Shown here: one piece after another, positions 3 to 34,619 of the stretch
Layout of the letters: every line of letters starts with the position of its first letter
How positions within the stretch are numbered: position 1 is the stretch's first letter
Notes under the pieces: generated by a model
What the model saw: only the letters and a program-made list of their open reading frames with translations
The model's database searches: none
What the model was told of the DNA's origin: nothing
Assembly (NCBI GenBank): GCA_037128175.1
Contig: JBAXWY010000029.1
Location: 1 to 34,619, forward strand
Length of the DNA: 34,619 nucleotides
Direction: 5' to 3'
Origin: Methanothrix sp.
GTDB lineage: Archaea > Halobacteriota > Methanosarcinia > Methanotrichales > Methanotrichaceae
Position numbers and translations under genes: made by a program

Positions 3-3000
3 ACCGGCTGGTCTGACACAACCATAACCAACCTTGCCCCTGCCGCTTTCCAAACAGTGACCGCCCCGCCAGGCACCTCGGTAGCCGGCCAGTACGAAAA
101 CACGGGCAAAGCAGTAGGCACGATTGATGCCGCCCATGGAGATGGAGCCAATGTCGAGGACACCGATCTGAGCCACTACTACGGCGCCAATCCCTCGGTC
201 GAGGTTATCAAGTATACAAACGGCGCGGATGCCAACACTCCCCCCGGTCCCTACATTCCCGTAGGCGGCCCAGTCACCTGGACCTACAAGGTCACCAACA
301 CCGGCAACGTTCCCCTGGCCACGGTCACAGTTACCGATGATCAGCTTCCCCTCTGGTCGGACACGAGCATAACCAACCTGGCCGTTGGCGCTTTCCAAAC
401 CGTGTCCGCCCCGGTCGAAATCTCAGTAGCCGGCCAGTACGAAAATACGGGCAAAGCAGTGGGCACGATTGGTGCGGCCTATGGAGATGGAGCCAATGTC
501 GAGGACACCGATCTGAGCCACTACTTCGGCGTGCAGCCGGATATTCAGATAGTCAAATTGACAAATGACGTAAATGCGCCAAACCCCAGTGATACTGGTC
601 CTTCCATTCCCGTAGGTGGCACAGTCACCTGGAAATACCGGATTACAAATACAGGCAATATAGAACTCAGAAATGTTCGTGTCGTTGATGATAAAATCGG
701 CGTCGTTCCCGGTAGCCCCATTGATAGCATTGCTCCCAGCGCGTATGTGGACCTGACGGCCACGGGGGTAGCAACACTTGACCAGTACGAGAATTCCGTT
801 ACAGCTACAGGCAGACCATCCGATGAAGAGCCAGATGTTTTTGACCAAACACTGGGCCACTACATTGGAGTTCCCGCGGCTATTGCTATCGTTAAGCTGA
901 CCAATGATGTCAATGCCCCTCTTCCAACTGACACCGGTCCCTACATTACGGTAGGCAATACTGTCACCTGGAAATACCAGGTAACAAATACAGGAAGTGT
1001 TGTACTCACAAATGTGCGTGTCAGTGATCCCAAAGTTGACCCCATTCCTGGTAGCCCCATACCACTTCTCGAACCAGGCGCGACCCATATGGTGGAGCTG
1101 ACTAAAACGGGCGTGGCCGATATTGGCCAGTACGAGAATACCGCTATGGCTACTGGTACCCCACCGGAAGGTCCTGATGTCTCTGATGACACATTGGGCC
1201 ACTACTTCGGTCAACAGCCTGCTATCCAGATAGTCAAATTGACAAATGACGTATTGGCACCCAACCCAGGCGACACAGGTCCCTACATTCCTGTAGGCAA
1301 TACAGTCACCTGGAAATATCAGGTCACTAATACAGGCAATGTAGTACTAACAAATGTTCATGTTGTTGATTCCAAAGTCGGTCCCATTGATCTCGGCCCA
1401 ATAACCCTTGCTCCTGGAGCGACGGTGGAGTTGACGAAAACAGGCGTCGCCGCAGCAGGTCAGTACGAGAATATTGCTACAGCCACAGGAAAACCACCCG
1501 CCGGCCCTGATGTCTCTGCGCAAACGCTGGGCCATTACTTCGGCTCACAGCCGGGTATCCAGATCGTCAAGCTGACAAATGACGTAGCTGCACCCAATCC
1601 AGGCGACAGCGGACCCTATATCCAAGTCGGCAGCACAGTCACCTGGAAATATCAGGTCACCAATACTGGCAATGTTGTACTCACAAATGTTATTGTCATG
1701 GATCCCAAAGCCGGTCCAATCACTGGTAGCCCTATAAACCACATTGATCCCGGCGCGACCGTGGAGCTGACGGCAACAGGCGTCGCCGCAGCTGGCCAGT
1801 ACGAGAATACCGGTACTGCTACAGGCACACCACCCGTAGGCTCTGATGTCTCGGACGACGATCTGGGTCACTACTTCGGCTATACTCCGGGCATAGCGAT
1901 CAAGAAATTCACTAACGGAGTAGACGCACCTGTTGCTCCCGGTCCCAACATCGCGGTAGGCGAGCCAGTGATCTGGACCTATCAGGTCACAAATGTAGGC
2001 ACTGTCCCTCTGCATGATATCCAGGTTACCGATGACAAGCCCGAACCTCATCTGATCGGCACCATTGGAACTCTGGCGGTTGGCCAAACCTCGCCAATCT
2101 TGACAGCCCCGGCAGGTGTTGCAGTTCGTGATCAATTCGAGAATACGGGCACTGCGACGGGCCTTGATTCCAACAATGTCCCGGTCACGGCCAGTTACAA
2201 GAGCCACTACTACGGCCTTATTGCAGAGGTCCAGATCATCAAGAAGACCAATGGAGTAGACGCACCCCTGCCACCTGGACCCCACATCTCGGTAGACGAC
2301 CCAGTAACCTGGACCTACGAGGTCACAAACACGGGCAATGTGCCGCTGACAAATGTGCGGGTAACGGATAATATGCTTCCAGGTTTCCTGGGAACTAAAG
2401 CATCGCTTATTCCTCAGGAGAGCTACACCTTTACAGCTCCTGTTGGAGTAGCAGTTGTAGGCCAGTACGACAATATAGGCACAGTCACGGCTACGCCACC
2501 CGAGATCCAGCCCACTACCGGCCCGGCAATGTCGGCTGCTGATATCACAGCCAGCTACCCGAGTCACTACTTCGGCCAGCTTCCTGGCATAATCCTCACC
2601 AAGGAAGCCGGCCAGTTGAATGCCAAGGTAGGCGATGAGGTCACCTACACCTTTACCGTCAAGAACATCGGCAACACGCCAATAACTCTGACGAGTATGA
2701 TAGATGATCATAGCAGTCAGTTCGTGCCCGATCCGGTAGGCCAGACTCTTGCACCAAAAGATACTCCCGGCGACACACTCGTATTTACCGCCAAGTACAC
2801 TGTCACTGCTGCTGATCTACCGGGTCCGATACTGAACACTGCCACTATTGAGGGTGAGGACAACCAAGGCAATAAGGTAACATCCACGGATACTGCCACA
2901 GTAGGCCTTGCCAACTTAATCGTGGCAAAGTCCGCCACTCCAACCAAAGGTCCTACCGGCACGGAAATTGATTTCCTCATTACCGTTGAGAACACGGCAT

Positions 3001-5957
3001 CTGCGCCTCTGACGATAAGCGGCGTGGATGTGCTGGATGCAGGGCTGACATATCTCAGGGATGACTACAATGGCATCGAGAATCCAAAGAACACCATAAC
3101 CTGGAACAATATGTTCACTTTGGATCCGCAGACCTCCAAGTCATTCCATCTGTTTGCCAGAATAGATGCAACTGTAATGGGTACATTGTGGAATAATGTA
3201 CAATTTACAGGAATCACCACGGATGGCAAAGAGGTAAGCGGACAGGCTAAAGCAGAGGTCCTAGTGCAGCAGGCATCTATTGCTGTAACCAAAGAAGCCT
3301 ATCCGAATTTCGGACTGCCGGGCACCATTATCGAATTCCCGATAGTTGTTAAAAACGACGGCAATCGTGATCTCGTAGAAGTGACTGCGACAGATACCCT
3401 TCCGGATGGTCTGGAATATTTGTCAGACGATCACGAAGGCGTCTTAATCGCGCCTGGTGTTATACAATGGAAGAATCTGGAAGTAGTAGCGGGAATTCCA
3501 TTCCTGCCCCCAGGCGGTGAAATCCCAATAAGCCTGAAAGCTATTGTCAAGGGAACGCTTGTCGGTGATCTGAATAACGTGGTCTATGTTTCAGGAGTTC
3601 CCCTGGGCGGCGGCACACCCGTTGAAAGCGAGGCCCAGGTCAAGGTCGGCGTCAAATGGTTCGGCGTAAGCAAGACCTCTGATAAAAAGGTGTACCGGCC
3701 TGGAGAGGATATCACCTATACCATCTCTATCTGCAATTATCCAGGATTACTGCCACTGGAGAATGTAATAGTCAAAGATGTCTTCCGTAATCCCGAAATG
3801 GTTACGATCGTGGCCAGCTATCCGGAGTCCAGCGAAGATGGCCTGTGGCACATTGATAGCATCCCGCCCGGAACATGCGAAGAGATAATCATCGTGGCCA
3901 GAACGCCCAAGGTCAAAACCACCTTCGATCTGGAACAGTCTGTAAACGGAAAGGGATTCGTTAATGTGAATAACGACCTATCTACAGCAGTCGGTCCCTA
4001 CGCAGTTGATAATTGCGTCTACGTAACTGCTACGATTGGTAAGGGAGAAGATAAAACGCAAGTGACCAATAGTACCTGTACCGGCGTAACTATCCAGGAC
4101 CTCGGCACGGAATTGCAGACCAGAGAACACGGAAGCGGTGATTACAGCTCTGAAGAGAACACAAATCTCAAGTGGGAGAACAGATCTATCGAGTCGCTAA
4201 AGAATGTCTCCGCCAGCTACTATCCGACGACCTTCGAGCTGCCCGGCAACAATGGCCTCAACTATGCCTCCAAGTGGACTGAGGAGAGCCGGGCCAAGAA
4301 CCACATTACCGGCACTGTCATGCATGAGACCTACCGCTACGCCACCAACGTAGACCGCGATTCGTACATCAAGATGGACGAGAACGGCTCGAAGATGATG
4401 GTGGACGCGAGCTTCACCGGCAAAGGCAGCATTGGCTTCTTCAAGAAGGCCTCACCGGAAGATGGACCCAAGAAGAAACCCATCTTTGAGAGCCAGGAGG
4501 ATTACAGCGGCCAATTCAGCATCAACGAATCATTTGATGAATACGGCAAGAACGTCGTCACCAAGAAGGCTGCATCAGGAGAAGGCTTCGTAGCTGCAGA
4601 CAAGAGGGTGCGCGACAGCCAGAGAACCTACGAGTCTGGAACCGGCGCATACAAGAGCGAGGAGATAGTTGACTCCTTTAGCAATTATATAGCCAAGGAT
4701 ATTGAGGTTGCTCATAAACCGAGCAGCTACAATTATTCTCCTTCTGTCCAGGCAAACCAGGATATGAAGTGGAATGAGGGAATGTGGTCCAAGAGCGGCA
4801 AACTGCGCGGAGGCGTCATAGTCGCTGCCAATGACTCAACAGGTGCAGCCTCAGTCGAGGCACCGTGCAATACTACCGATAAGGGAATGGCTCCTGCTTC
4901 TCTAATCAGCGAGAAGTATTCATCTCTGGAGTATATGAAGAAGGATTCCATAGCTCTCGGCTTAAACGAGATGAAGACCAATGCCACCTTCAACGGCATT
5001 GCTGATTTCAGGGCAGCGTCGGCCGGTGTAAATGGCACAGACAAGGTCGACAATGAGGAGCGCTATGCAGGCGAATTCAGCCTGAACCGGCATATTCTCA
5101 TGACCGGCGTCTCGAAGTACGACTTCCCCCATATTACCGTGACCAAGGAAGGCCAGAGGAAGTCCGAATGGTTCAACCGGATTAACTCAACTGTCGGCGA
5201 TTACACCATAACTATAACCAATGACGGTAATCGGGCTCTGGCTCCAGTGTATGTTGTGGATTTCTTCCCGCCGGGAACGCAGTACATCGGCTCCTCGGTC
5301 AAGCCGACGGCACTTACGGCAGCTACGGCTAATTGGACAATATTGCATCTTGGAATTGGCAATAGCCTGAGCATCAATCTGAAGCTCAACATAACCGAAG
5401 AAGCGTCCGATAATGTGCTCAATTGCGTCCAGGTCAGCGGCGTTGCAGGCGAGGCAGTGGTTTCTTCAACCAATTGCACGAGCCTGGATACTGCATGGCT
5501 TGGCTGCTGTGCATCCGAGGTGTCTGTGGAAAAGAATGCTAAATTGGACTCAACGGATCCAACCGTAGTGCATTACACCATAATGCTCAGAAACAATGCC
5601 AAGAGCAACTGGGCCGCAAAGGTTACCGATCAGGTTCCAGCAGATATGACTCTGCTCAATTCCTCAGTTGAGCCTTACAGCATTAACCCGGCTTATATCA
5701 ACTGGGCTTTCGCCAATCTGGCACCTGATGAACTGGTAACCATTGAGTACAGCATGCGTGCGGCAAGAAACGGGGCCTACACCAATAAGGTGCACGTGGA
5801 TACCAGCGCGGTTGATGGGTCCGGCAGCGGTTCTGCCGATGCATATGCCTACATAGATGTCAGGGGCACTGGTGTTGCCCCAAGGACTCTCAAGTATGAC
5901 GGATGGCAGCCGCCAGACTGGGAACTGAACACATCTGAAGAAGGCATAAGCGTTTAA
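3..5957 (+). CDS. Giant cell-surface protein with tandem DUF11-like (conserved repeat) Ig-type domains; 5' end lies outside the window
   Basis: The frame is open from base 3. Repeats of ~113-115 aa (IxIxKxTN...VTWxYxVTNTGNxxL..V.V.D...GQYENT) are followed by DUF11-type 'vxKxa...i.f.I.V.N.G' modules and a unique C-terminal region. Confidence 0.85.
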   Translation, partial: TGWSDTTITNLAPAAFQTVTAPPGTSVAGQYENTGKAVGTIDAAHGDGANVEDTDLSHYYGANPSVEVIKYTNGADANTPPGPYIPVGGPVTWTYKVTNTGNVPLATVTVTDDQLPLWSDTSITNLAVGAFQTVSAPVEISVAGQYENTGKAVGTIGAAYGDGANVEDTDLSHYFGVQPDIQIVKLTNDVNAPNPSDTGPSIPVGGTVTWKYRITNTGNIELRNVRVVDDKIGVVPGSPIDSIAPSAYVDLTATGVATLDQYENSVTATGRPSDEEPDVFDQTLGHYIGVPAAIAIVKLTNDVNAPLPTDTGPYITVGNTVTWKYQVTNTGSVVLTNVRVSDPKVDPIPGSPIPLLEPGATHMVELTKTGVADIGQYENTAMATGTPPEGPDVSDDTLGHYFGQQPAIQIVKLTNDVLAPNPGDTGPYIPVGNTVTWKYQVTNTGNVVLTNVHVVDSKVGPIDLGPITLAPGATVELTKTGVAAAGQYENIATATGKPPAGPDVSAQTLGHYFGSQPGIQIVKLTNDVAAPNPGDSGPYIQVGSTVTWKYQVTNTGNVVLTNVIVMDPKAGPITGSPINHIDPGATVELTATGVAAAGQYENTGTATGTPPVGSDVSDDDLGHYFGYTPGIAIKKFTNGVDAPVAPGPNIAVGEPVIWTYQVTNVGTVPLHDIQVTDDKPEPHLIGTIGTLAVGQTSPILTAPAGVAVRDQFENTGTATGLDSNNVPVTASYKSHYYGLIAEVQIIKKTNGVDAPLPPGPHISVDDPVTWTYEVTNTGNVPLTNVRVTDNMLPGFLGTKASLIPQESYTFTAPVGVAVVGQYDNIGTVTATPPEIQPTTGPAMSAADITASYPSHYFGQLPGIILTKEAGQLNAKVGDEVTYTFTVKNIGNTPITLTSMIDDHSSQFVPDPVGQTLAPKDTPGDTLVFTAKYTVTAADLPGPILNTATIEGEDNQGNKVTSTDTATVGLANLIVAKSATPTKGPTGTEIDFLITVENTASAPLTISGVDVLDAGLTYLRDDYNGIENPKNTITWNNMFTLDPQTSKSFHLFARIDATVMGTLWNNVQFTGITTDGKEVSGQAKAEVLVQQASIAVTKEAYPNFGLPGTIIEFPIVVKNDGNRDLVEVTATDTLPDGLEYLSDDHEGVLIAPGVIQWKNLEVVAGIPFLPPGGEIPISLKAIVKGTLVGDLNNVVYVSGVPLGGGTPVESEAQVKVGVKWFGVSKTSDKKVYRPGEDITYTISICNYPGLLPLENVIVKDVFRNPEMVTIVASYPESSEDGLWHIDSIPPGTCEEIIIVARTPKVKTTFDLEQSVNGKGFVNVNNDLSTAVGPYAVDNCVYVTATIGKGEDKTQVTNSTCTGVTIQDLGTELQTREHGSGDYSSEENTNLKWENRSIESLKNVSASYYPTTFELPGNNGLNYASKWTEESRAKNHITGTVMHETYRYATNVDRDSYIKMDENGSKMMVDASFTGKGSIGFFKKASPEDGPKKKPIFESQEDYSGQFSINESFDEYGKNVVTKKAASGEGFVAADKRVRDSQRTYESGTGAYKSEEIVDSFSNYIAKDIEVAHKPSSYNYSPSVQANQDMKWNEGMWSKSGKLRGGVIVAANDSTGAASVEAPCNTTDKGMAPASLISEKYSSLEYMKKDSIALGLNEMKTNATFNGIADFRAASAGVNGTDKVDNEERYAGEFSLNRHILMTGVSKYDFPHITVTKEGQRKSEWFNRINSTVGDYTITITNDGNRALAPVYVVDFFPPGTQYIGSSVKPTALTAATANWTILHLGIGNSLSINLKLNITEEASDNVLNCVQVSGVAGEAVVSSTNCTSLDTAWLGCCASEVSVEKNAKLDSTDPTVVHYTIMLRNNAKSNWAAKVTDQVPADMTLLNSSVEPYSINPAYINWAFANLAPDELVTIEYSMRAARNGAYTNKVHVDTSAVDGSGSGSADAYAYIDVRGTGVAPRTLKYDGWQPPDWELNTSEEGISV

Positions 5958-6020: not shown

Positions 6021-6096
6021 CTTGATAGATACTGACTATTATTCGGGCACGCCAACCTTAATAAAGAAGCCTTCCAAGCATCTGGCGTGGTATAGC

Positions 6097-7347
6097 ATGT
6101 CATTTCAGATAGAGAAGATTCATGCTCGTGAGATCCTTGACTCACGAGGAAACCCGACTATAGAGGTCGATGTTTACACTTGCTGCGGTTTCGGGCGCGC
6201 GGCTGTGCCCTCCGGCGCATCCACTGGCACGCACGAGGCTTTGGAGCTACGCGATGGAGGAGACAGATATGGCGGCAAGGGCGTCCTCAAGGCGGTCAAG
6301 AATGTCAATGAGGTCATTGCCCCCGAGATGCTGGGCATGAATGCCTCTGCTCAGAGGGAGATCGATGATTTCATGATCGAGATGGACGGCACGCCCAATA
6401 AGTCCCATCTGGGTGCCAATGCCATTCTAGGCGTCTCGATCGCCGTGGCCAAAGCGGCAGCATCCTCCGCGGAAATGCCGCTCTACAAATACCTGGGCGG
6501 AGTGAATACCTCTCGCCTGCCCATTCCTTCCTTCAACGTCCTCAACGGAGGTCAGCATGCCGGCAACGAGCTCTCCATCCAGGAGTTCATGATTGAGCCC
6601 ACCGGGGCCAGGACATTTTCCGAGGGCCTACGCATGGCTGTTGAGACCTATCATGCTCTGGGCAAGATTTTAAAGGGAAAGTATGGTGTGGGTGCAACCA
6701 ACGTCGGATACGAAGGTGGCTATGCACCGCCGCTGGTGAGGACTCGCGATGCCCTGGATGCCATCATGAGCGCTCTTGATGTCAGCGGCTATGGCGATGA
6801 GATCAAGATTGGTCTCGACTCGGCAGCCTCCAGCTTCTACATGGAAGGCGGCTACTCTGTGGACGGAAATCGGCTTACTCCAGGAGAGCTGGTCGATTAC
6901 TATGTCGATCTGGTCAAAACCTACCCCATTATTCTGCTGGAAGACCCCTTCGAGGAGGAGGCGTATGACAGCTTTGCCGAGCTTACGGCGAAGTTGCCGG
7001 GCACGATAATAGTAGGAGACGACCTTTATGTCACCAACATAAAGCGCCTGAAGAAGGGCATAGAGATGCATGCCGGCAATGCCCTGCTGCTCAAACTCAA
7101 CCAGATCGGATCCGTTTCCGAGGCCTTTGATGCGGCACGCATGGCCTTCCGGGCGGGCTGGAAGGTCATGGCCTCCCATCGCTCGGCAGAGACTGAGGAC
7201 TCGGCTTTAGCCGATGTGGCTGTAGCCCTGGGCTGCGAGCTGCTCAAGACCGGTGCGCCGGCCCGTTCAGAGAGGACGGCCAAGTACAACCAGCTTCTCC
7301 GGATAGAGGAGCAGCTGGACGAGGCGGCGGAATACGCCGTCATTTAG
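6097..7347 (+). CDS. eno: Enolase (phosphopyruvate hydratase)
   Basis: Motifs REILDSRGNPT, VPSGASTG, LLLKLNQIG, SHRSxETED and KYNQLLRIEE. ATG 6097 (MSFQIEK) preferred over the upstream TTG. Confidence 0.97.
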   Translation: MSFQIEKIHAREILDSRGNPTIEVDVYTCCGFGRAAVPSGASTGTHEALELRDGGDRYGGKGVLKAVKNVNEVIAPEMLGMNASAQREIDDFMIEMDGTPNKSHLGANAILGVSIAVAKAAASSAEMPLYKYLGGVNTSRLPIPSFNVLNGGQHAGNELSIQEFMIEPTGARTFSEGLRMAVETYHALGKILKGKYGVGATNVGYEGGYAPPLVRTRDALDAIMSALDVSGYGDEIKIGLDSAASSFYMEGGYSVDGNRLTPGELVDYYVDLVKTYPIILLEDPFEEEAYDSFAELTAKLPGTIIVGDDLYVTNIKRLKKGIEMHAGNALLLKLNQIGSVSEAFDAARMAFRAGWKVMASHRSAETEDSALADVAVALGCELLKTGAPARSERTAKYNQLLRIEEQLDEAAEYAVI

Positions 7348-10048: not shown

Positions 10049-10612
10049 TTATCTATTTAGAAAGCTGCGCAGCTTCATCGCCAGATAAATAGTGACAAGG
10101 CCACCGATGATGCAAAGGTATGCCAGCAGAGACACCAGCATAAGAACGCTAACTACGGGAGAGCCTATCAGGAGCAATCCGAATATGATGCTTAAGACGC
10201 CCATGATGGCCGTCCCCCATCCTTCCTTCATCGCCCAGAAGAGGCTGCTCACGCCGAAGCAAACTCCGAGAATGCCCACAATCAGGATAACCGTCTCAGG
10301 GACTATTAGGGCGCTTAGCAACGGATGACCAAAGATAATTAAGCCTGCCAGTATTCCCAATAAACCGCTGACCGCTCTCCATATCCAATCAGTCCTGTCC
10401 ATGAAGATCGTGATTATCGTCAAGATGCCGATGATGATCCAGTATAATCCCAGGGTCTGCACGAGAAAGATGATGGTCGAAACCGGTGAGATAATCAGAT
10501 AAATGCCTATAATCAGGGCGACCAGACCTTGCAGCAGTACAAGCCACCAGGGAATTAGGGCAGCCTTAACCAATGATGTCTCGTTCACAGTTATTTCTGT
10601 CACAAATATCAT
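10049..10612 (-). CDS. HdeD/DUF308-family membrane protein
   Basis: WWLVLLQG start and six short Gly-rich transmembrane segments. Confidence 0.8.
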   Translation of the reverse strand: MIFVTEITVNETSLVKAALIPWWLVLLQGLVALIIGIYLIISPVSTIIFLVQTLGLYWIIIGILTIITIFMDRTDWIWRAVSGLLGILAGLIIFGHPLLSALIVPETVILIVGILGVCFGVSSLFWAMKEGWGTAIMGVLSIIFGLLLIGSPVVSVLMLVSLLAYLCIIGGLVTIYLAMKLRSFLNR

Positions 10613-16983: not shown

Positions 16984-17304
16984 CTACACAAATAGCTTTT
17001 GAAGAACCATGCAAGTGCAGATCTGGGCAAATTCGCTGATACGCATCACTTCGCCATCGTAATCTTCCCAAGTGATAGCCGATACCTCAGCTTTCACCGG
17101 CTTATGGCTCTTTATGAACTTCTGGAAGGCGGCGATTTTTGCCTCATCTGCATCAACCTGGCAGATGACAACTTGCGAGCTGTTTTCCTCCCACCAGTAG
17201 GCAGAAATTCTCATCACCCCGCAATCCAATGCAGCCTCCATCAGGAATATGCGATAGCCTACATCATGCACTTTGGGACCGGTGATCTTGACTTTCAGCT
17301 TCAT
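16984..17304 (-). pseudogene. Acylphosphatase-domain gene, copy 1; truncated/frameshifted before the coiled-coil tail
   Basis: Starts [18 protein letters not shown] like copies 2 and 3, ends where they continue (QLNKAIP), and lacks the catalytic-position Asn. Confidence 0.7.
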
Positions 17305-17310
17305 CTCACT

Positions 17311-17345
17311 CTTGATATGTATCGACAAGCTATTTGGTTGTTTCC
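17311..17345 (-). promoter_or_regulatory. Conserved upstream motif of the acylphosphatase family (copy 1)
   Basis: Minus strand GGAAACAACCAAATAGCTTGTCGATACATATCAAG; 34/35 identical to the copy at 19810. Confidence 0.65.
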
Positions 17346-17360
17346 AAGAACGTTTCAATA

Positions 17361-17539
17361 CATGGATCTCATCCCGGCCTGGGAGAGGAGCGACCTGAAA
17401 AGGATGGGAGAAAAGAGTTTCGCGGCTCGAAGAGGGCGGAGATCGGGCACCACGGTTTTGAGATCTACCGGCACACAAGATCTTTTTGCGGGAGAGCGGC
17501 CCGGAATTCGTGGGCATGAGCTCGGTGGGGGGCCTCCAT
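17361..17539 (+). pseudogene. Degenerate copy of a 3'-proximal segment of the GHMP-kinase gene (12860-13048)
   Basis: Direct repeat ATGGATCTCATCCC...GAGTTTCGCGGCTCGAAGAGGGC...GGAATTCGTGGGCATGAGCTCGGT...CCTCCAT, with frameshifts. Confidence 0.9.
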
Positions 17540-17838
17540 CGAAAAAGCAGGTGGTGTTCATGTCTTTGCAAGCCACACAACAGCAACCATGATGATAGCA
17601 AACGGCGCTGACATAAGAATAGTTCAAAAAGTATTAAGACACAATGACATAAGAACAAACCTTCGCTATGCACATGTTAGCGATAAAACTAAAAGGAAAA
17701 AATATGAGCAATGTTTGACTTTGTGAATATTTCATTTAATTACATGCAGCTAATGATACAAAAAGGTGGAAGCATGATGAATTCTAGAAGTTATCAGAAG
17801 TAGATACTCCCATATTAGCGTCCATCTGGCCATAAATC

Positions 17839-18807
17839 TTATAATTTATTCTTGTCGATTGTAGGATCAACATGTCTCATTTCATCTGCCATTTTATATT
17901 TCCAGTATCCTGCATTATCATAAGGAGTATATAAAATACCCGAATAATCGGAAGCCATTTCGAAATTATCATCAATACGACAAAGAATAAAAACTTTTTC
18001 GCGTCCTAATTTCGCAAGGAAGAAACCAAGCTCCATTATAACATTTTGCCTTGCCCTATACTTTCCTTTGCTTGGATCTATATTTTTAGGATAAGCAAAA
18101 TCATCTGGAGAAAGAATAATTATTGCAAAGCAGACATCCGAGTACTGTTCAAATTTTTCTATTATTGTTTTATTTCCATCAGGTTGTTCATGAAGTATTA
18201 TTGGCGTCAAATCCAGTTTTTCAAGCGTTCTTGCAACAGCAAGCTTCATCTCATCATCATGTCCATGAACTACAAAAATTCGATTAAGAACCTTTTCCAT
18301 TATCCCGATTTGAGCCACTTTAGATATTTCAGAATTTTTGCCTAGTCGCATTAATGTTGTGGGAATTTCGGTTTTATTATCTTTTTCTTTTTTAGCCGAC
18401 ACATCAATTTTTTCTGCCAATTTTTGCTCTTTGTTGAATTTATCAAATTTGCTGTTAATAAATTCTTCAATTTGCTGAAATTTTCCTCTTACCCATGCTT
18501 CGTCGTATCCAGTGATGTACAGGTGTGAGGAAGCTCCGGTATTAGTAGTTAGATCAATGGCTGACTTATATTTCGAGTCGCGATTGTAGGATCTTATTTC
18601 ATATCCACTTAATCTATCTGGAATCTCTTTATGGGCCAAAAGCGCCTCAATCGATTTCTCCTCGATTTTAAGCATATCAACAGTTATATATATAGTAGAA
18701 TCCAAATCAGATTGATTATTACCTACTATCATTTCCCAAAGATTTTTCAAATCTATTTTACTAATTGGAACGTTTTTGATAAATTCTGATTTTATAAATT
18801 CTTTCAA
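17839..18807 (-). CDS. TIR-like nucleotide-binding domain protein (CAP12/Pycsar-type TIR) with unrecognised N-terminal domain
   Basis: IFVVHGHD, PIILHEQ, TIIEKFE, SPDD, RARQNVIMELGFF, SDYSG; strongly AT-rich relative to its neighbours. Confidence 0.88.
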   Translation of the reverse strand: MKEFIKSEFIKNVPISKIDLKNLWEMIVGNNQSDLDSTIYITVDMLKIEEKSIEALLAHKEIPDRLSGYEIRSYNRDSKYKSAIDLTTNTGASSHLYITGYDEAWVRGKFQQIEEFINSKFDKFNKEQKLAEKIDVSAKKEKDNKTEIPTTLMRLGKNSEISKVAQIGIMEKVLNRIFVVHGHDDEMKLAVARTLEKLDLTPIILHEQPDGNKTIIEKFEQYSDVCFAIIILSPDDFAYPKNIDPSKGKYRARQNVIMELGFFLAKLGREKVFILCRIDDNFEMASDYSGILYTPYDNAGYWKYKMADEMRHVDPTIDKNKL

Positions 18808-19170: not shown

Positions 19171-19214
19171 TGAGAGAGCCTTGCCGGCCAATCCTCCCGG
19201 CAACGCCCCTCTCA
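19171..19214. repeat. Imperfect palindrome (REP-like or terminator-like), homologous to 20789-20829
   Basis: TGAGAG..TTGCCGG-N9-CCGGCAA..CTCTCA; overlaps the stop codon of acylphosphatase copy 2. Confidence 0.65.
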
Positions 19215-19808
19215 CTGCATACCCAAGCGTTCCTTTATCGCTCTGACATCGGCCTGCATTTGCCTGGCATATCCTGGCTGAATGTCTTCCCTCATGCCTT
19301 TGATCTCTTCCGTGACCTCACTCATATTCGCTTTCACGGCCTTGATGTCTTCCCCGATTTGAGGGATGATCTCGGTATTCTTCCGCACTGCTTTCATATC
19401 ACCCTTTAACTCTTTTATATCACCCTTCAACTCTTTCAGATCACCCGTCATCTCTTTGAGGTTGTCTCTAATATCCAGGAGTAGCGGGATTGCCTTGTTT
19501 AGCTGTATATTTGTGCAAACAAAGGCATACTCGCTGGTCTTCATAATATCGCCCTCATAGTCCTCAAAGACAATGCTCGATACTTGGGAATGGTCAGGTT
19601 TTTGGGTCTCTACCAGCTTCTTAAAATCTGCGATTGTTTCTTCATTGCCTTCGACCAGGGCTGTTACCTCCGGCCCCTTCTCGCCCGTCCTATTGCGAGC
19701 GTGAAAGCCCTTGAGACCCAAGTCTATGGCGTTGCTCATCAGAAAGTACCTGTAGCCCACATCATGCACTTTTGGACCGATAATCTTAACTTTCAGCTTC
19801 ATAGTCAT
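19212..19808 (-). CDS. Acylphosphatase-domain protein with heptad coiled-coil tail (copy 2)
   Basis: [10 protein letters not shown] and GFHARN (Arg and Asn retained); tail of GDLKELK/GDIKELK heptads encoded by 21-nt repeats (19391-19453). Confidence 0.85.
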   Translation of the reverse strand: MTMKLKVKIIGPKVHDVGYRYFLMSNAIDLGLKGFHARNRTGEKGPEVTALVEGNEETIADFKKLVETQKPDHSQVSSIVFEDYEGDIMKTSEYAFVCTNIQLNKAIPLLLDIRDNLKEMTGDLKELKGDIKELKGDMKAVRKNTEIIPQIGEDIKAVKANMSEVTEEIKGMREDIQPGYARQMQADVRAIKERLGMQ

Positions 19809-20113: not shown

Positions 20114-20650
20114 TCAGTGCATCCCCAGTCGTTCCTTTATCGCTCTGACATCGGATTGTACCTGTCGGAAATTCATCCCATATCCTGGTTGAATGTCTTC
20201 CCTCATGCCTTTGATTTCTTCCAGTACCTGAGGAATTGCGTCGGTATTCTTCCGCACTGCTTTCATATCACCCTTGATCTCTTTCATATCACCAGTCATC
20301 GATTTGAGGTCATCTCTTATATCGAGGAGCAGCGGAATAGCCTTGTTCAATTGGACTATGGAGCAGAATTGGGAATATTCTCCGATCTTCATGATATCTC
20401 CCTCAAAGTCATCAAAGACGATATTCGATACATTAGAGCGATCAGGACGCCTGGTTTCAACTTGGGTGCGAAAGGCTTTAACTGCTTCATCGTCACCTTC
20501 GACAAAGACTAGGACCTCTTCACATTCGCTGCTTTCTGTATTATAGGCTTCAAACATCTTGATTCTATTAGACATGGCCATGCTCAACAGAAAGTACCTG
20601 TAGCCTACATCATGCACTTTGGGACCGGCAATCTTAATTTTCAGCTTCAT
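20114..20650 (-). CDS. Acylphosphatase-domain protein with heptad coiled-coil tail (copy 3)
   Basis: [10 protein letters not shown]; tail closely related to copy 2 but with fewer heptads. Confidence 0.85.
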
Positions 20651-23433: not shown

Positions 23434-24060
23434 CTAAATAATTCCTTTCACTCTCAATGCGGCTCTCATCTCGACTACCTCGTCCTCCAGCTTCTCGAAC
23501 CTCTGATCCAGGTAGCCTTTTAGATCATTTCTGGATTCCTTGACCTCATCAAGAAGATCCTGCTGCGAATCAATCATTTCTCTTTGACCACTGAGCATTT
23601 GATCTTGCTTTTCGATCATTTGATCCTGCTTTCCAATCATTTGATCCTGCTTTCCAATCATTTGATCCTGCTTTTCGATTAGTATGTCTAACTTGCCGCC
23701 TAGCTTGTCACCCAGATTATTAACGGCAACGATCAAATCTTTTAGGTGAACGGCAGCTGTGTCCAACCTGGTATCTGTTTCCCCAATGTCTACCAATTTA
23801 TAGAACTTAGAGACTTTTCCAATCGCAGAGGAATACTCTTTTTCGATGGTCGAAACTTGGATTCGGGTATTCTTAATATCGATAGCTTCTTCAAACCACT
23901 TCAGCCGATCTTCGTCTCCCTCAGCTACAATCCTCACTCTGCCGTCGTCCAGGTTTTCCACGAATCCTTTAAAGCCTAAAGCTCGGGCGATATCCGTGAC
24001 CCTGGCACGGTATCCAGTCTTCTGGACCTTGCCTGAGACATAAGCTGTCAACTGTTTCAT
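23434..24060 (-). CDS. Acylphosphatase-domain protein with KQDQMIG heptad tail (copy 4, different subfamily)
   Basis: SGKVQKTGYR, GFVENLDDGRV..AEG; C-terminal coiled coil. Confidence 0.88.
   Translation of the reverse strand: MKQLTAYVSGKVQKTGYRARVTDIARALGFKGFVENLDDGRVRIVAEGDEDRLKWFEEAIDIKNTRIQVSTIEKEYSSAIGKVSKFYKLVDIGETDTRLDTAAVHLKDLIVAVNNLGDKLGGKLDILIEKQDQMIGKQDQMIGKQDQMIEKQDQMLSGQREMIDSQQDLLDEVKESRNDLKGYLDQRFEKLEDEVVEMRAALRVKGII
23596..23679 (-). repeat. 4 x 21-bp coding tandem repeat
   Basis: CATTTGATC(C/T)TGCTTT(CCA/TCG)AT x4; the two central units are identical. Confidence 0.95.
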
Positions 24061-29919: not shown

Positions 29920-30393
29920 TTATTTTCTCTTAAGCTGTCCGGCTAAGTTGAGCATATCAGCAACTGCCCCATCCGAGATCCTGTAGCGGCACCATTTTCC
30001 TTCTTTTCTCTCTTTTACAAGGCCAGCGTCTTCAAGTATTGAGAGATTATGAGAAATGGAGGACTGCGGTCTTTTCAAGGCCAGCATGAGCTCACCAATG
30101 CAAAGTTCCCCTCCGCTCAGAAGTTTGAGAATCTTGAGTCGGGTTAAGTCTGCTAAAGCCTTAAAGACTTTCATCTCGGCAGTCAATTCCTCTTCGTCGA
30201 TATTTTTTATTTGAGTGCATACCTGGAGACATCGCTCTCTGGCTATGCTTCTATCTCCATAAAACCGGACAAGAGTATTTTCTGCTTCGCAGCAAGCGCT
30301 ATCGTCCTGGCAGGAGGATTTCTCAACTCCTGGCAGAGGAAGGGGCAATCTTTTTCTTTGGATCATTGGGAACTCTTTATCCAGCATCAGCAT
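29920..30393 (-). CDS. ArsR/SmtB family transcriptional regulator
   Basis: FKALADLTRLKIL...ELCIGEL...QSSISHNL..L..AGLV..RKEGKW; N-terminal Cys cluster. Confidence 0.9.
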   Translation of the reverse strand: MLMLDKEFPMIQRKRLPLPLPGVEKSSCQDDSACCEAENTLVRFYGDRSIARERCLQVCTQIKNIDEEELTAEMKVFKALADLTRLKILKLLSGGELCIGELMLALKRPQSSISHNLSILEDAGLVKERKEGKWCRYRISDGAVADMLNLAGQLKRK

Positions 30394-30852: not shown

Positions 30853-30945
30853 ACCTTTTCACCAGGATATAATAGCATGGATTAGAATATAAAATTATTG
30901 CATATCTGCCACGAACACTTAATCTATTTTCTCCTAAATACATAT

Positions 30946-31029
30946 CAAAGATGGAGCTGCCCGAAATGCGGCGAGATACTCTGTGTTCATAAATCGCAAT
31001 GTCTTTATTGCCGGCACACATGGCGCTAG
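30946..31029 (+). pseudogene. 3' remnant of a Cys-rich (DUF3795-like) gene
   Basis: Frame without a credible start: QRWSCPKCGEILCVHKSQCLYCRHTWR*. Confidence 0.55.
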
Positions 31030-31059
31030 AAAAGACCAAATGAAGGTGTGAGCTGGACA

Positions 31060-31566
31060 ATGGACATCGTTATCCGCAATGAGATAACGTCGGACATCAA
31101 AGCGATATCGGAGATCACGAAAGCCGCTTTTGAGACTCTTGCAGTTAGTAACCAAACGGAACAGTTCATCATTGATGCACTGCGAGATGCGAACGCGCTT
31201 ACCATCTCGTTGGTAGCAGTTGCCGGGAAAAAGGTGGTAGGCCACATAGCTTTCTCGCCTGTGACAATTTCCGATGGTAGCCCCGGTTGGTATGGTCTCG
31301 GCCCCATTTCTGTCTTGCCGGAATTACAGAAGCAGGGTATCGGAAAATCTCTGATCCGTGAAGGCCTGTCCTCACTAAAGTCATTGGGTGCAAATGGCTG
31401 CGTGCTCGTGGGAGATCCCGGCTACTACGAGAGGTTCGGCTTCAGAAGTCCCTCGGACCTGGTTATTGACGGCGTTCCGCAGGAGTACGTTCTTGCGTTG
31501 CCGTTCGATGAACGCAAAGCCAGCGGTACTGTGATATTTCATGATGGCTTTGCAGCAACCGGCTAA
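31060..31566 (+). CDS. GNAT N-acetyltransferase (YhbS-like)
   Basis: VVGHIAFSP, LGPISVLPELQKQGIG, VLVGDPGYYERFGF. Confidence 0.92.
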   Translation: MDIVIRNEITSDIKAISEITKAAFETLAVSNQTEQFIIDALRDANALTISLVAVAGKKVVGHIAFSPVTISDGSPGWYGLGPISVLPELQKQGIGKSLIREGLSSLKSLGANGCVLVGDPGYYERFGFRSPSDLVIDGVPQEYVLALPFDERKASGTVIFHDGFAATG

Positions 31567-31623
31567 CAGGGCGCAGGGGCCAATCGGCGAAATAGGGCGC
31601 TCTGGCTTGTCTCTGTGTTGGGG
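31561..31623 (+). mobile_element. Degenerate integron attC-like site
   Basis: GGCTAAC overlapping the stop ... GCCAATCGGCG/CGCTCTGGC inner arms ... GTTGGGG; 63 bp. Confidence 0.55.
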
Positions 31624-31764
31624 AGCGCCATATTCGGCATAGGTAAGACCACATGGTGGCCACTTTCGGCCGTTCATCAAAACCGGTCTTGAAGAAGGAT
31701 CATAACGAGTTGGCTTGGGAGAAGTAAAGGGGGCTGTGGTTGCCGGCGGAGGTCAGACGAATAT

Positions 31765-32580
31765 ATGAAAGAAACATCAATTAGATCATGGGATGAGTTC
31801 GTCGAGCAGGTGGAGAAGCTGCAGGCTGAAAGAGATGCCTACGCCAAACAAACATCCTCATTTTTCTCAGAATTGCTCTATCGTGGTCAGCGAGACTCAT
31901 GCATGAAGCTAGAGACAACACTTGAGCGATCGATACCGCATGAGATAACCCTAAGTAAGTACTATAACTTTGTCTATATCATACGGGCGAAGATCGAATC
32001 TGTAACAGGCAAGGATTGGTGTATTCCTTCGCGAGAGGAATTCGAAAAGTGGTGCGATGAGCAGCACATTCCTTTGCATGACATTCCTGGATACTCCTTC
32101 CTTGCATATCTTCGGCACCATGGCCTGCCGTCTCCCCTCTTAGATTGGACAAGATCTCCTTACGTGGCCGCGCACTTTGCCATGGCACCGCCTCCGCTTG
32201 AGGGTGTGCAACATGCTGCGATCTATGTCTATCATGAAGCAAAGGGATGGAAAAATGGAGACGATGAGGCACCCGCCATTCAGAGCCTTGGCCCCTATGT
32301 CACCACTCACCGTAGACACTATCTTCAGCAGAGTGAATATACAATCTGCACCGCGGGGAAAGGCCGATTACTTCGGTACGCTTCTCATGAAACAGTTGTG
32401 GCCCGAGATGATAACGGCCAAGATGGGCTCTGGAAACTCATCATCCCGATTTCCGAAAGGGTGGATTTTATCGAACACCTTCAAAGGATGAACATCAATC
32501 CATTTTCCCTTTTTGAGACAGAAGATAGTCTGATGGAGGATATTTACCTTTCAGAGATGTTTCTGCGGAAACGTCTTTAA
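31765..32580 (+). CDS. FRG domain-containing protein
   Basis: LYRGQRD, L..TLER, RHHGLPSPLLDWT.SPYVAAHFA. Confidence 0.9.
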   Translation: MKETSIRSWDEFVEQVEKLQAERDAYAKQTSSFFSELLYRGQRDSCMKLETTLERSIPHEITLSKYYNFVYIIRAKIESVTGKDWCIPSREEFEKWCDEQHIPLHDIPGYSFLAYLRHHGLPSPLLDWTRSPYVAAHFAMAPPPLEGVQHAAIYVYHEAKGWKNGDDEAPAIQSLGPYVTTHRRHYLQQSEYTICTAGKGRLLRYASHETVVARDDNGQDGLWKLIIPISERVDFIEHLQRMNINPFSLFETEDSLMEDIYLSEMFLRKRL

Positions 32581-32657
32581 TTAGGCTTACTGACGATATG
32601 CACTAAAGTTGCGTGCGTTATGCGTTTACCCGCGTTCGGTAGAGCACCACGTTTGGC
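32573..32657 (+). mobile_element. Degenerate attC-like site between the FRG and nuclease genes
   Basis: GCTTACTGACG pairs imperfectly with CGTTCGGTAGAGC, followed by a 5-bp spacer and GTTTGGC; inner ATGCAC/GTGCGT stem. Confidence 0.45.
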
Positions 32658-32674
32658 ACGAAATAGGAGGAAAT

Positions 32675-33544
32675 ATGGACTTCACAAAATTTGAGACTGT
32701 ATCAATCAAAAATCATCCCGAGTTGGACGAAAAGTGGGTTCAGGCACGAATCGCGGAAGATCCGTCTATCCTTGGTCTTGGCGATGTTATCCTAAAAGAC
32801 AAGGAACGTCCACAACCTAGAGCCGGGCGTCTTGATCTTCTCCTTCAGGAAGCAGAATCCAACGGACGATACGAGGTCGAGGTCCAACTCGGTCAGACAG
32901 ACGAAAAGCACATTATCCGAACGATTGAATACTGGGACATAGAACGACGCAGATATCCTCAATACGAACACATTGCGGTGATTGTCGCTGAAGATATTAC
33001 AAGCCGATTCCTAAATATAATTAGCCTATTCAACGGAATGATTCCACTTGTCGCCATCCAGATGAAAGCGCTCAAGGCAGGAAATAGCATTGGTCTTGTA
33101 TTCACTACGGTCGTCGATCAGATGACACTCGGACTCTTAGACGAAGATGAGGAAGTTCAAGAGACAACTGACCGCTCCTATTGGGAATTGCGTGGCTCGA
33201 AGAAGACTGTCGCCATTGCCGACGAACTGCTTGAACTTGCGCGAATTCACGATAAGGCATTGGAACTAAAATTCAATAAGTTCTACATTGGATTGGCAAA
33301 GGAAGGCCAAACGCGCAACTTCATAATATTCCGTCCAAAGAAAGGATTCCTCAGATTTGAGCCTCGCCTAAAGAGTACCACAGAGACCCAAGAATTTCTG
33401 GCCTCCGCCGAACTCAATGTAATGGACTATGATAGCCGATGGGGGCGTTACCGTATCCGACTGCAACCAGGGGACGTTGAGAAATTCAAAACGGTTCTCG
33501 CAGAAGTCATTGCTCGAGCATTTGCTGAGAGCAACAAAGATTAA
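32675..33544 (+). CDS. PD-(D/E)xK-like (NucS-type) nuclease domain protein with DUF5655-like C-terminus
   Basis: RBS AGGAGG; E..VQ..I..DPSILGLG, GRLDLL, YEVEVQ, IIRTIEYW; C-terminal KFNKFYIG. Confidence 0.65.
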   Translation: MDFTKFETVSIKNHPELDEKWVQARIAEDPSILGLGDVILKDKERPQPRAGRLDLLLQEAESNGRYEVEVQLGQTDEKHIIRTIEYWDIERRRYPQYEHIAVIVAEDITSRFLNIISLFNGMIPLVAIQMKALKAGNSIGLVFTTVVDQMTLGLLDEDEEVQETTDRSYWELRGSKKTVAIADELLELARIHDKALELKFNKFYIGLAKEGQTRNFIIFRPKKGFLRFEPRLKSTTETQEFLASAELNVMDYDSRWGRYRIRLQPGDVEKFKTVLAEVIARAFAESNKD

Positions 33545-33600
33545 GTGTCGAACAATGAAATTAATTAGTTTAATGAAAAATAAATAATATACTCTATTTT

Positions 33601-33745
33601 TCAAAGTACTTGCATATCAACTGCAGCCCGATCCTCCGCAAAATATCTCTCCTTCAGCTTAAGCGCCACCTTCGCCAGTCGATCAGCATGGCACCTCGAT
33701 GAGCGGCCCGATGACCGCAGCAAAGGCCTCCTGGGAGGCGATGCC
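33601..33745 (-). pseudogene. acr3: 3' remnant of an Acr3-type arsenite exporter
   Basis: GIASQEAFAAVIGPLIEVP, then after frameshifts LAKVALKLKERYF...*; AFAAVIGPLxEVP is characteristic of the last helix of Acr3. Confidence 0.8.
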
Positions 33746-33792
33746 CGTCGTTTCGGCAAGTTTAAACTTAAGAAGCATGTGAGGATTCAGTT

Positions 33793-34506
33793 ATGGCCAA
33801 TACCTGCAAAGAAGGAAATTTCGACGAAAAACCACCGGTGAATGTTGAAGAATATGATAAGTCCATCAGGCTATTTTGTGGTGCTTACGAAGAGATGTTT
33901 AAACTGACTCATTGCTACCTGCGAGCGAGGCTTCCCGAGCAGGCCAGGATTCTGGTAGTAGGCGCAGGCACCGGTATGGAAATTTCCGAATTTGCTCCTT
34001 TGAACCCTGGCTGGTCCTTTTGTGGCGTTGATCCTTCTGCAAATATGCTGGCTCTTGCCGGAAAAAAAATCTGTGAAAAGAATCTGGCCTGCGAAATTGA
34101 GCTGAAAAAGGGGTATGTGCATGACCTTAAAGATGAGGAGGTTTTCGACGCTGCCACCTGCATTCTGGTAATGCATTTTTTGAAAGACGACGGGACCAAA
34201 TTAAAGCTACTCGAAAGTATATGCAAACGCTTGAAGAGCGGTGCTCCTTTTGTATTGATAGATGGCTTTGGAGAGCCGGGCAGTATGGATTTCGAGGAGA
34301 TCAAAGCGGCCTGGAAGAATTACCCGATTATTAGCGGTGTGCCAGGCGAGATGGTGGAAAACGTCTTCAATGAAGTTATTATGAAGATGATCCAATTTGT
34401 TCCAGAGTCGCGTATAATGGAATTGCTGGAAACGGCGGGCTTCACAAGGGTGTCTAAATACTTTTCAGGATTTCTCTATGGTGGTTGGATGGGCTATAAG
34501 AAATAG
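33793..34506 (+). CDS. Class I SAM-dependent methyltransferase (CmoA-like family)
   Basis: ILVVGAGTG, GVDPS..ML, FDAATCILVMHF, L.SGAPF. Confidence 0.9.
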   Translation: MANTCKEGNFDEKPPVNVEEYDKSIRLFCGAYEEMFKLTHCYLRARLPEQARILVVGAGTGMEISEFAPLNPGWSFCGVDPSANMLALAGKKICEKNLACEIELKKGYVHDLKDEEVFDAATCILVMHFLKDDGTKLKLLESICKRLKSGAPFVLIDGFGEPGSMDFEEIKAAWKNYPIISGVPGEMVENVFNEVIMKMIQFVPESRIMELLETAGFTRVSKYFSGFLYGGWMGYKK

Positions 34507-34517
34507 ATATCAAAGAA

Positions 34518-34567
34518 GCCGAACAGCGAAATTGCGGCAGCGCATCCATGCAAGCAAGTTGCGATTT
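34518..34567 (+). other. Partial attC-like hairpin lacking a right core
   Basis: GCCGAAC, then the AAATTGCGGC/GTTGCGATTT stem (G-T wobbles) with inner GCAT/ATGC. Confidence 0.35.
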
Positions 34568-34581
34568 ATTTTTAATGAATA

Positions 34582-34601
34582 CCCCGCAGCTTGCTGCGGG
34601 G
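34582..34601. repeat. Perfect palindrome (REP-like or IS200/IS605-end-like hairpin)
   Basis: CCCCGCAGC-TT-GCTGCGGGG. Confidence 0.6.
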
Positions 34602-34619
34602 ATGGACAGGAAACCGTCT

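Follow-up and report, generated by a model that had tools for sequence, protein, structure and literature searches.

Integron cassettes are recognised by their attC sites, each of which carries an R'' and an R' box (RYYYAAC ... GTTRRRY) that lie 57-141 nt apart on one strand, and the integrase cuts at G|TT of R'. The locus described here is the end of a contig of the methanogen Methanothrix sp. (JBAXWY010000029.1, assembly GCA_037128175.1; the whole stretch of 34,619 nt that was analysed is called the window). Among the described systems, it is to be compared first with the CALIN, a cluster of attC sites lacking integron integrases, which by definition contains two or more attC sites with distances below 4 kb (Ghaly et al. 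2022, PMC9668308). That paper reports integrons for 75 archaeal genomes from nine phyla, mostly as attC clusters without integrase, it already documents the movement of cassettes between domains, and its supplement contains one genome of the Methanotrichaceae with 2 attC sites and no IntI. The second comparison is with sedentary chromosomal arrays of bacteria that contain a DUF5655 gene, examples of which are the loci L003 (Rokubacteria), L021 (Alcanivorax), L026, L029, L034, and L049 (numbers refer to the 80 bacterial loci introduced below). The four genes at the contig end had initially been annotated as a decayed, CALIN-like array of bacterial cassettes. The results indicate that exactly one of them, the gene for a DUF5655/NucS-like protein of 289 aa, is a fossil bacterial integron cassette in a decaying accessory patch, and a probability of about 0.55 is assigned to this reading.

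The four genes occupy the plus strand and fill the last 3.7 kb of the contig. They encode a GNAT acetyltransferase, an FRG-domain protein, the 289-aa nuclease-like protein, and a methyltransferase (Table 1). Pfam analysis verified that these genes are unrelated as well as co-oriented, and the enolase gene of the contig verified that the host is a methanogen. With a CALIN the segment shares co-oriented, unrelated genes of cassette size, the lack of an integrase, one gene from a cassette-borne family, and a host family for which attC sites have been reported. In contrast to a CALIN, it has no detectable attC site, one of its genes is native, and one of its spacers contains the remnant of a pseudogene. 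The last 3.7 kb are an ordinary, partly decayed accessory patch and neither an integron nor an attC cluster.

The first line of evidence for the cassette ancestry of the DUF5655 gene comes from its relatives. A genome scan with the 289-aa protein yielded 80 loci, all of them bacterial, from many phyla and with 59-88% protein identity. attC sites are present in 23 of the 80 loci. In 15 relatives an attC starts between positions -6 and +11 of the stop codon, in 11 the distance from the end of an attC to the start codon is 80 nt or less, and one or the other applies to 19 of the 80. Homologues of IntI with 47-61% identity to IntI1 are encoded within about 4 kb upstream of the DUF5655 gene in L026, L034, L011, and L029, and short IntI-like fragments were found upstream of the gene in L021 and L055. 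The expectation that homologues would be cassette-borne was thus confirmed for the nuclease, with 19 relatives beside a model-confirmed attC and IntI in four loci. Close homologues with intact attC sites exist, and judged by sequence comparison the gene is a member of a cassette-borne family.

The second line of evidence comes from short remnants on both sides of the gene, which were scored with weight matrices for R'' and R' that had been built from the 100 best true attC sites. Downstream, the sequence NNGCCGAAC follows the stop codon and contains the word GTCGAAC. At true sites the R'' matrix has a median of 12.2 bits and a tenth percentile of 7.9, and the 10.0 bits of the window word are reached by none of 33 control genes. 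The word has the same +2 offset from the stop codon as GCCGAAC in L003, L006, L007, and L010, from which it is one base apart. An AAC at offset +6 is present in 14 of the 80 relatives, compared to about 1.25 expected, and six of these 14 are model-confirmed attC starts. No GTT was found 50-190 nt 3' of the R'' (one GTT is 20 nt away), and the rest of the nuclease's own attC is therefore absent; the sequence that follows is AT-rich with T-runs.

Upstream, the 94-nt spacer between the FRG gene and the nuclease gene contains the R'-like box GTGCGTTATGC, 34 bases upstream of GTTTGGC. Its score of 14.0 bits is the best on both strands of the window (69,000 positions); the next best is 11.2, and the median of true attC sites is 12.3. 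The 26 nt that end with GTTTGGC are identical to a true attC 3' end at 18 positions, and values of 17 or higher were obtained for 7 of 352 GTT-anchored positions. The geometry of the leader matches that of L001 (GTTCGAC), L003 (GTTCGGC), and L011 (GTTCTGC), and for L003 and L011 the models confirmed that the R' box is the end of an attC, 14 nt upstream of the start codon. Thus, the words GTTTGGCAC and GTGTCGAAC, which the initial annotation had quoted as cores of the nuclease gene, do sit where the relatives have their cassette boundaries. On the DNA level, homology to the relatives comprises the coding sequence and does not extend further than 13 nt into the leader and 9 nt into the tail; it ends at these remnants. 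The nuclease begins with ATG 32675 also in public collections, this codon is preceded at a distance of 8 nt by the ribosome site AGGAGG, and T-runs follow the stop codon.

The sedentary bacterial arrays share with the window the same gene (65-81% protein identity), the length of the leader from R' to ATG, and the position of R'' relative to the stop codon. They differ in having full attC sites, which score 30-63 bits and number up to 31 in 20 kb; in several of them an intI gene is adjacent. In addition, the 5' TTRRRY of true cassettes is complementary to their own R'' at 7 of 7 positions, compared to 5 of 7 for the nuclease in the window. As a separate observation, the stretch 32613-32657 contains four CGTT words in 45 nt (GTTATGC, GTTTACC, GTTCGGT, and GTTTGGC; about 0.18 expected), which may represent stacked remnants of R' boxes or an array of protein-binding sites.

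The following history would explain one fossil cassette among unrelated neighbours. The GNAT gene and a convergent acr3 gene would once have been native neighbours, and a piece of a bacterial cassette array would have been joined between them by illegitimate recombination and not by an integrase. As a minimum, this piece would have comprised the DUF5655 cassette together with the final part of the attC before it and the initial box of the cassette's own attC; the FRG gene may have been included as well. The upstream remnant would be the 3' end of the preceding attC, with R'-like boxes at 32617-32623 and 32651-32657, and the downstream remnant would be the first box (R'' GTCGAAC) of the nuclease's own attC. 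Illegitimate recombination is preferred over an integrase because the right junction lies just after R'' and not at G|TT of R'. On its right side the piece would abut the 3' end of the native acr3 gene, which would later have been truncated next to the methyltransferase gene. The hairpin bodies of both sites are gone, and therefore no integrase could act on the remnants; the genes would now be read as ordinary archaeal genes, with no present cassette recombination. In a more specific and tentative version, an array fragment (the DUF5655 cassette with parts of both attC sites, or FRG plus DUF5655) would have been captured without integrase with both breakpoints inside attC hairpins; similarly doubtful is the bolder proposal that the four-gene block is an eroded archaeal array, in which the R'' boxes have outlasted the rest. 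If the version with hairpin breakpoints were true, cassette genes could leave the integron system and cross domains by hairpin breakage and illegitimate joining.

Table 1. Coordinates of genes, site-like words, and repeats in the last 3.7 kb of the window.
Feature	Position	Strand	Remarks
GNAT N-acetyltransferase, 168 aa	31060..31566	+	Pfam Acetyltransf_1/7/9
FRG-domain protein, 271 aa, candidate single-gene defence protein	31765..32580	+	Pfam FRG 2.1e-17; PADLOC PDC-S15 1.6e-33
DUF5655 / NucS-like PD-(D/E)XK protein, 289 aa, putative former cassette gene	32675..33544	+	
Class I S-adenosylmethionine-dependent methyltransferase, 237 aa	33793..34506	+	Pfam Methyltransf_11/12/25
R'-like box GTGCGTTATGC, FRG-nuclease spacer	32613..32623	+	3' matrix 14.0 bits
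attC 3'-half-like stretch ending with GTTTGGC (annotated core of the nuclease), 17 nt before ATG	32632..32657	+	
Putative R'' remnant GTCGAAC, 2 nt after nuclease stop	33547..33553	+	R'' matrix 10.0 bits
R''-like GGCTAAC over GNAT stop and annotated 63-nt spacer	31561..31623	+	R2 5.9 bits, R'' matrix 7.4
ACR3 arsenite-efflux C-terminal remnant (pseudogene), contains GTTTCGGC	33686..33790	-	TIGR00832 acr3 E 1.4e-4
R''-like GCCGAAC, 11 nt after methyltransferase stop	34518..34524	+	R'' matrix 6.9 bits
Direct repeat copy 1 (AAATACATATCAAAGA), 5' of GNAT	30936..30951		15/16 identical to 34501-34516
Direct repeat copy 2, overlaps methyltransferase stop, followed by GCCGAAC	34501..34516		
8-bp perfect G+C hairpin beside T-rich run, terminator-like	34582..34601		18 nt from contig end

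Complete attC sites were searched for with covariance models. An Rfam scan of the whole window (E<=1) gave only a chance match to a miRNA, and because Rfam has no attC family, own models were built, which are thus not those of IntegronFinder. Candidates had first been sought 3' of the 80 homologues with the strict RYYYAAC/GTTRRRY pattern, which missed true sites; an energy-constrained AAC...GTT scan found true sites and also matches inside genes, and it was replaced by the covariance models. By eye and with the energy-constrained scan, 19 attC sites were picked from the 80 loci and from R100. Four rows that had been misaligned by MAFFT (L011_7654, L034_8305, L026_10871, and L034_9873) were omitted, and the remaining 15 sites, including that of aadA1 of R100, formed model R1; all four omitted sites were later recovered as model matches. 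In the 15-site alignment 70.7% of the R-box and L-box cells are paired, compared to 62.0% after shuffling, and none of 500 shuffles was as high. In the 1.22 Mb of control loci R1 detected 103 sites (E<=10), and R2, which was built from these matches, detected 117 sites (E<=1) with 19.9-67.9 bits, 114 of them on the strand of the DUF5655 gene. Particularly dense arrays comprise 31 attC sites at 138-19909 of L049 (Pyrinomonadaceae) and 23 at 594-18992 of L003, each within about 20 kb; the DUF5655 gene of L049 appears to be truncated (stop at 10510).

The same R1 search (E<=10), which revealed long arrays in L049, L003, and L021, did not find an attC in the window. With filters off, R1 gave three matches (E 4.3-7.2) and R2 four (E 2.2-9) in the window, all of them outside of 30900-34619. 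When the 3.7 kb of 30900-34619 were searched alone, alignments of 5.9 bits (31561-31623, E 1.9), 3.1 bits, and 2.9 bits were obtained, which is the level of noise. The initial annotation had itself named the lack of an attC-model signal at relaxed thresholds as a reason to give it up, and no such signal was found. Because a CALIN by definition needs two or more attC sites within 4 kb of each other and none is detectable, the region is not a CALIN, and the terms CALIN-like and array do not apply. A complete integron is lacking as well: as had been annotated, tblastn with IntI1 of R100 did not find an intI gene on the 34.6-kb contig. Its only match (49 aa, 41% identity, E 1.6e-4) is at 17532-17678 and falls into a 68-aa stop-to-stop frame (17520-17726, plus strand) with a Pfam Phage_integrase match of 1.5e-7 at profile positions 134-170 of 172. 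This C-terminal recombinase stump, 41% identical to residues 268-315 of IntI1 and about 13 kb away from the four genes, is the only trace of a tyrosine recombinase on the contig.

Beside the reading with a single fossil cassette, the explanation that retains most weight is that all four genes are former cassettes of one decayed array, i.e., a fossil CALIN that possibly continues past the contig end. It is regarded as unlikely. Its best argument is the presence of R''-like words at three of the four stop codons, with 7.4 bits for GNAT, 10.0 bits for the nuclease, and 6.9 bits for the methyltransferase. Values of at least 6.9 bits occur at 2.2% of 1254 ends of long open reading frames in 56 attC-free loci and at one of the 39 other open-reading-frame ends in the window. 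If the nuclease is granted, the probability that at least two of the other three stops are R''-like is about 0.0014, which a single-cassette origin has to treat as a coincidence and which weighs against it. Because the stop statistics are post hoc and the region had been chosen by eye, this was not taken as proof, and the array remains an unlikely explanation. Further points in its favour are that no attC-model alignment other than the one that begins precisely at the GNAT stop exceeds 5 bits, that 17 of 26 positions in the 3' flank of GNAT agree with a true attC 5' end (top 1.4% of AAC-anchored positions), that the distance from the FRG stop to GTTTGGC is attC-sized (77 nt) and contains the four CGTT words, that the genes are co-oriented and of cassette size, that the last R''-like word is followed by 95 nt of contig, and that a Methanotrichaceae genome with attC sites is on record.

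Against this stand, besides the negative results with two validated models at any threshold, the properties of the individual genes. The best 120 homologues of GNAT are 77-92% identical, all six that are named by organism belong to Methanothrix or Methanosaeta, and some are on contigs of 2.2-3.6 Mb. For comparison, enolase (6022-7347) is 94% identical to that of Methanosaeta sp. and 80-94% identical over its best 120 matches, among which all organism-named ones belong to Methanothrix, Methanosaeta, or Methanotrichaceae. Because the divergence of GNAT parallels that of enolase across Methanothrix, GNAT is a native, vertically inherited gene and had not been captured from bacteria. Its start at ATG 31060 and the exact 168-aa form are present in public collections, and the GTG 'core' annotated at 31048 is 12 nt 5' of this start. 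Only 4 of 7 positions are complementary in the candidate pair GGCTAAC...GTTGGGG, and the fold z of 31561-31623 is -0.23. The GNAT C-terminus AATG is common to seven of the eight sequences read, and therefore part of GGC-TAA-C is due to coding constraint.

The 248-nt spacer between nuclease and methyltransferase does not contain a decayed attC but the opposite-strand acr3 remnant. The remnant covers positions 299-318 of 327 of the NCBIfam profile TIGR00832, has in-frame stops upstream, and may continue after a frameshift to 33604. The annotated 'core' of the methyltransferase, GTTTCGGC, turned out to be the complement of codons of this remnant. The nearest 50%-cluster representatives of the methyltransferase are 56%, 48%, and at most 45% identical. 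Its 3' flank is identical to a true attC 5' end at 16 of 26 positions (5.8% of null positions), gives no attC-model match, and has a fold z of +0.65. An R' was not found before GNAT, FRG, or methyltransferase (4.0, -0.7, and -0.7 bits, whereas controls reach 5.8), and the FRG gene has neither an R'' nor an R' signal (-2.1 and -0.7 bits). No homologues of these three proteins are encoded in the 1.13 Mb around the 80 cassette loci (10 kb), their families are not among 77 neighbouring cassettes, and no attC was found near the plasmid homologues (39-59% identity) of GNAT (three) and methyltransferase (one). A Protein Atlas look-up of FRG and methyltransferase returned family names only. Separately, a gene for an ArsR-family regulator is located at 29920-30393 on the minus strand.

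The predicted folding of the spacers does not argue for an array either. The 63-bp spacer after GNAT and the spacer of about 85 bp after FRG had been described as foldable and attC-sized, and they fold no better than shuffled sequences. The z values of seven candidate stretches are -0.23, -0.85, -0.60, +0.64, -0.63, +0.65, and -1.53, the last from the only candidate with the terminal hairpin. For five true attC sites used as controls the values are -5.56, +0.30, -1.11, -3.37, and -4.87, so three of the five are at about -3.4 or below. An imperfect hairpin with paired L boxes, or a stable single-strand fold, was not observed for any of the seven candidates. A pair of R'' and R' boxes of the strict consensus is lacking in the region, and the single matches (32722 and 34484; 32857, 32882, and 33028) are all within coding sequence. 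Taking these results together with the ancestry of the nuclease, the annotated capture and decay of bacterial cassettes holds for one of the four genes, and it is not supported for GNAT, for the methyltransferase core, and for the FRG boundaries.

The opposite explanation is that there is no cassette ancestry at all, i.e., that the nuclease gene arrived by ordinary horizontal transfer and the R'- and R''-like words are due to chance or are gene-linked flanks. It is considered improbable, and several observations speak for it or weaken the reading as a fossil cassette. No attC is present in 57 of the 80 relatives, many of which are among restriction-modification and other genes; therefore the gene also travels outside of integrons, and the conserved flank could be gene-linked. 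The stumps have a length of only 7-26 nt, their statistics were computed after the fact, and the region had been picked for such words, which is a selection effect. The best nucleotide identity to a fetched relative is 79% (L001), and 51 positions of the window have R'' values of at least 6.5. All eight strings of the initial annotation are present at their positions, and the GNAT and nuclease pairs are indeed complementary at 7 of 9 positions; for the methyltransferase pair a match requires a 1-nt indel (without gap, 4 of 7), and the FRG pair is trivial, as CGTCT occurs at 30 places in the window. GTTRRRY or RYYYAAC is not matched by any of the eight strings. When 400 pseudo-genes were placed at random, 99% had a pair with 7 or more complementary positions out of 9 without constraint, 33% if the upstream word had to start with GT, and 4.8% if the downstream word in addition had to end with AAC. 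Core-pair complementarity alone is therefore weak evidence. A chance origin is contradicted by the excess of AAC at +6 among the relatives and its coincidence with model-confirmed attC starts, by the window word that is one base from GCCGAAC at the same offset, and by the location of the best R' of 69,000 positions within the 94-nt spacer just before the nuclease.

An assembly chimera, in which bacterial DNA was joined to the end of the Methanothrix contig during metagenome assembly, is very improbable: the segment is indeed at the contig end, has a GC content of 45-47% compared to 52-62% for core genes, and contains a nuclease gene whose nearest named relatives are bacterial, but this gene is located between the native GNAT gene and the acr3 remnant that is followed by the methyltransferase gene, an 880-kb contig carries members of the methyltransferase 90% cluster, a nuclease fragment and the methyltransferase are each on a contig of 2219 nt, FRG and nuclease are each on contigs of 3452 and 11937 nt, which suggests, indirectly through the equal sizes, the same gene order in other assemblies, and the upstream ArsR and YgaP genes are similarly low in GC.

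The next question is what the protein of the putative fossil cassette does. The closest described proteins are NucS/EndoMS nucleases. An AlphaFold2 model of the 289-aa protein, based on 41 aligned sequences, has a mean predicted local distance difference test (pLDDT) value of 86. In a Foldseek search the N-domain of this model matched NucS/EndoMS (2vld, E 8e-4; 5gke, E 4e-3; probability 1.0), with weaker matches to SfsA and to small subunits of restriction enzymes. Within the 41 sequences the acidic residues D54 and E69 are invariant and E67 is nearly so. The differences are that the sequence identity to NucS/EndoMS is 15-17% and that the C-domain (DUF5655) resembles the MotA-CTD and YdhG-like DNA-binding folds. 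Three points weigh against nuclease activity, namely a Pfam DUF5655 match below threshold (E 0.082), TM-scores to NucS/EndoMS of 0.32-0.40, which indicate a partial similarity, and the motif E-x-Q instead of E-x-K, Q71 being invariant where K is usual. The label 'nuclease' is thus plausible; judged by fold, family, and neighbourhoods, the protein probably cuts DNA. A search of PDB sequences gave no match for the nuclease and one chance match for FRG.

FRG belongs to a family of candidate defence proteins, as its match to the PADLOC PDC-S15 profile PDLC04937 covers residues 2-250 and its Pfam FRG match is above the cut-off. Of the 96 genes that directly neighbour the DUF5655 gene in loci devoid of attC, at least 10 are restriction-modification or other defence genes (Eco57I/MmeI methylases, HsdM, Mrr, TIR, PLD-SNF2). 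From fold, family, and neighbourhoods, the FRG gene and the nuclease gene probably form a small defence islet. No match was found for either protein in the phage collection, and the nuclease has only 13 records in plasmids. In the literature searched, a single paper names DUF5655, and a term search of a preprint on defence cassettes of integrons (10.1101/2024.07.02.601686) gave no mention of FRG, DUF5655, PDC-S, NucS, or GNAT. The range of 59-88% identity at constant length over many bacterial phyla, including genomes of the candidate phyla radiation, is unusual for an uncharacterised accessory gene.

Archaeal attC clusters are already known, and the gene interpreted here as a fossil cassette without attC in Methanothrix would be a further case of cassette DNA in Archaea. 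The locus would be a concrete example of a cassette gene after it has left the integron system. Its sequence shows an intact gene, for which expression in the acetoclastic methanogen is presumed, while of its recombination sites only boxes of 7-11 nt would have persisted. Pipelines that use attC models do not see fossils of this kind, and therefore the flow of cassettes into Archaea may be undercounted. Among cassette cargos, the DUF5655/NucS-like protein is one of those with a comparatively wide distribution over the bacterial phyla, and it is a reasonable candidate for a functional test.

The setting of the four genes was characterised further. Judged by enolase, the GNAT homologues, and the acr3 remnant, it is a native methanogen chromosome. 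A tRNA scan of the window did not detect a tRNA, and therefore a tRNA-linked island is not present. The four-gene block is bracketed by a 16-nt pair of direct repeats (family D4) of borderline significance. The repeats may be att sites of one inserted element, with the reservations that the match is borderline and that the bracketed GNAT gene is native. An inverted repeat at 33570/34564 (I5) was rejected as AT-rich low complexity, and a long attC from 34518 past the contig end was rejected because the arms beside the terminal hairpin do not pair. Read on the minus strand, the terminal hairpin at 34582-34601 resembles a terminator, and it points to a convergent gene past the end of the contig.

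Additional observations were made elsewhere in the window. The recombinase stump is adjoined by a minus-strand gene (17839-18807) with a GC content of 0.33, which encodes a TIR domain of the CAP12/Pycsar type (1.4e-35), and together the two resemble a degraded integrated element with a defence gene. Four paralogous minus-strand genes with an acylphosphatase-like N-terminal domain (16984-17673, 19212-19808, 20114-20650, and 23434-24060) are scattered around this low-GC islet, and one of the encoded proteins has a coiled-coil tail. At the other end of the window, the plus-strand frame 57-5957 runs off the 5' end of the contig and encodes a surface protein (about 1,970 aa) in which the DUF7507 repeat is present in eight copies and the DUF11 repeat in five.

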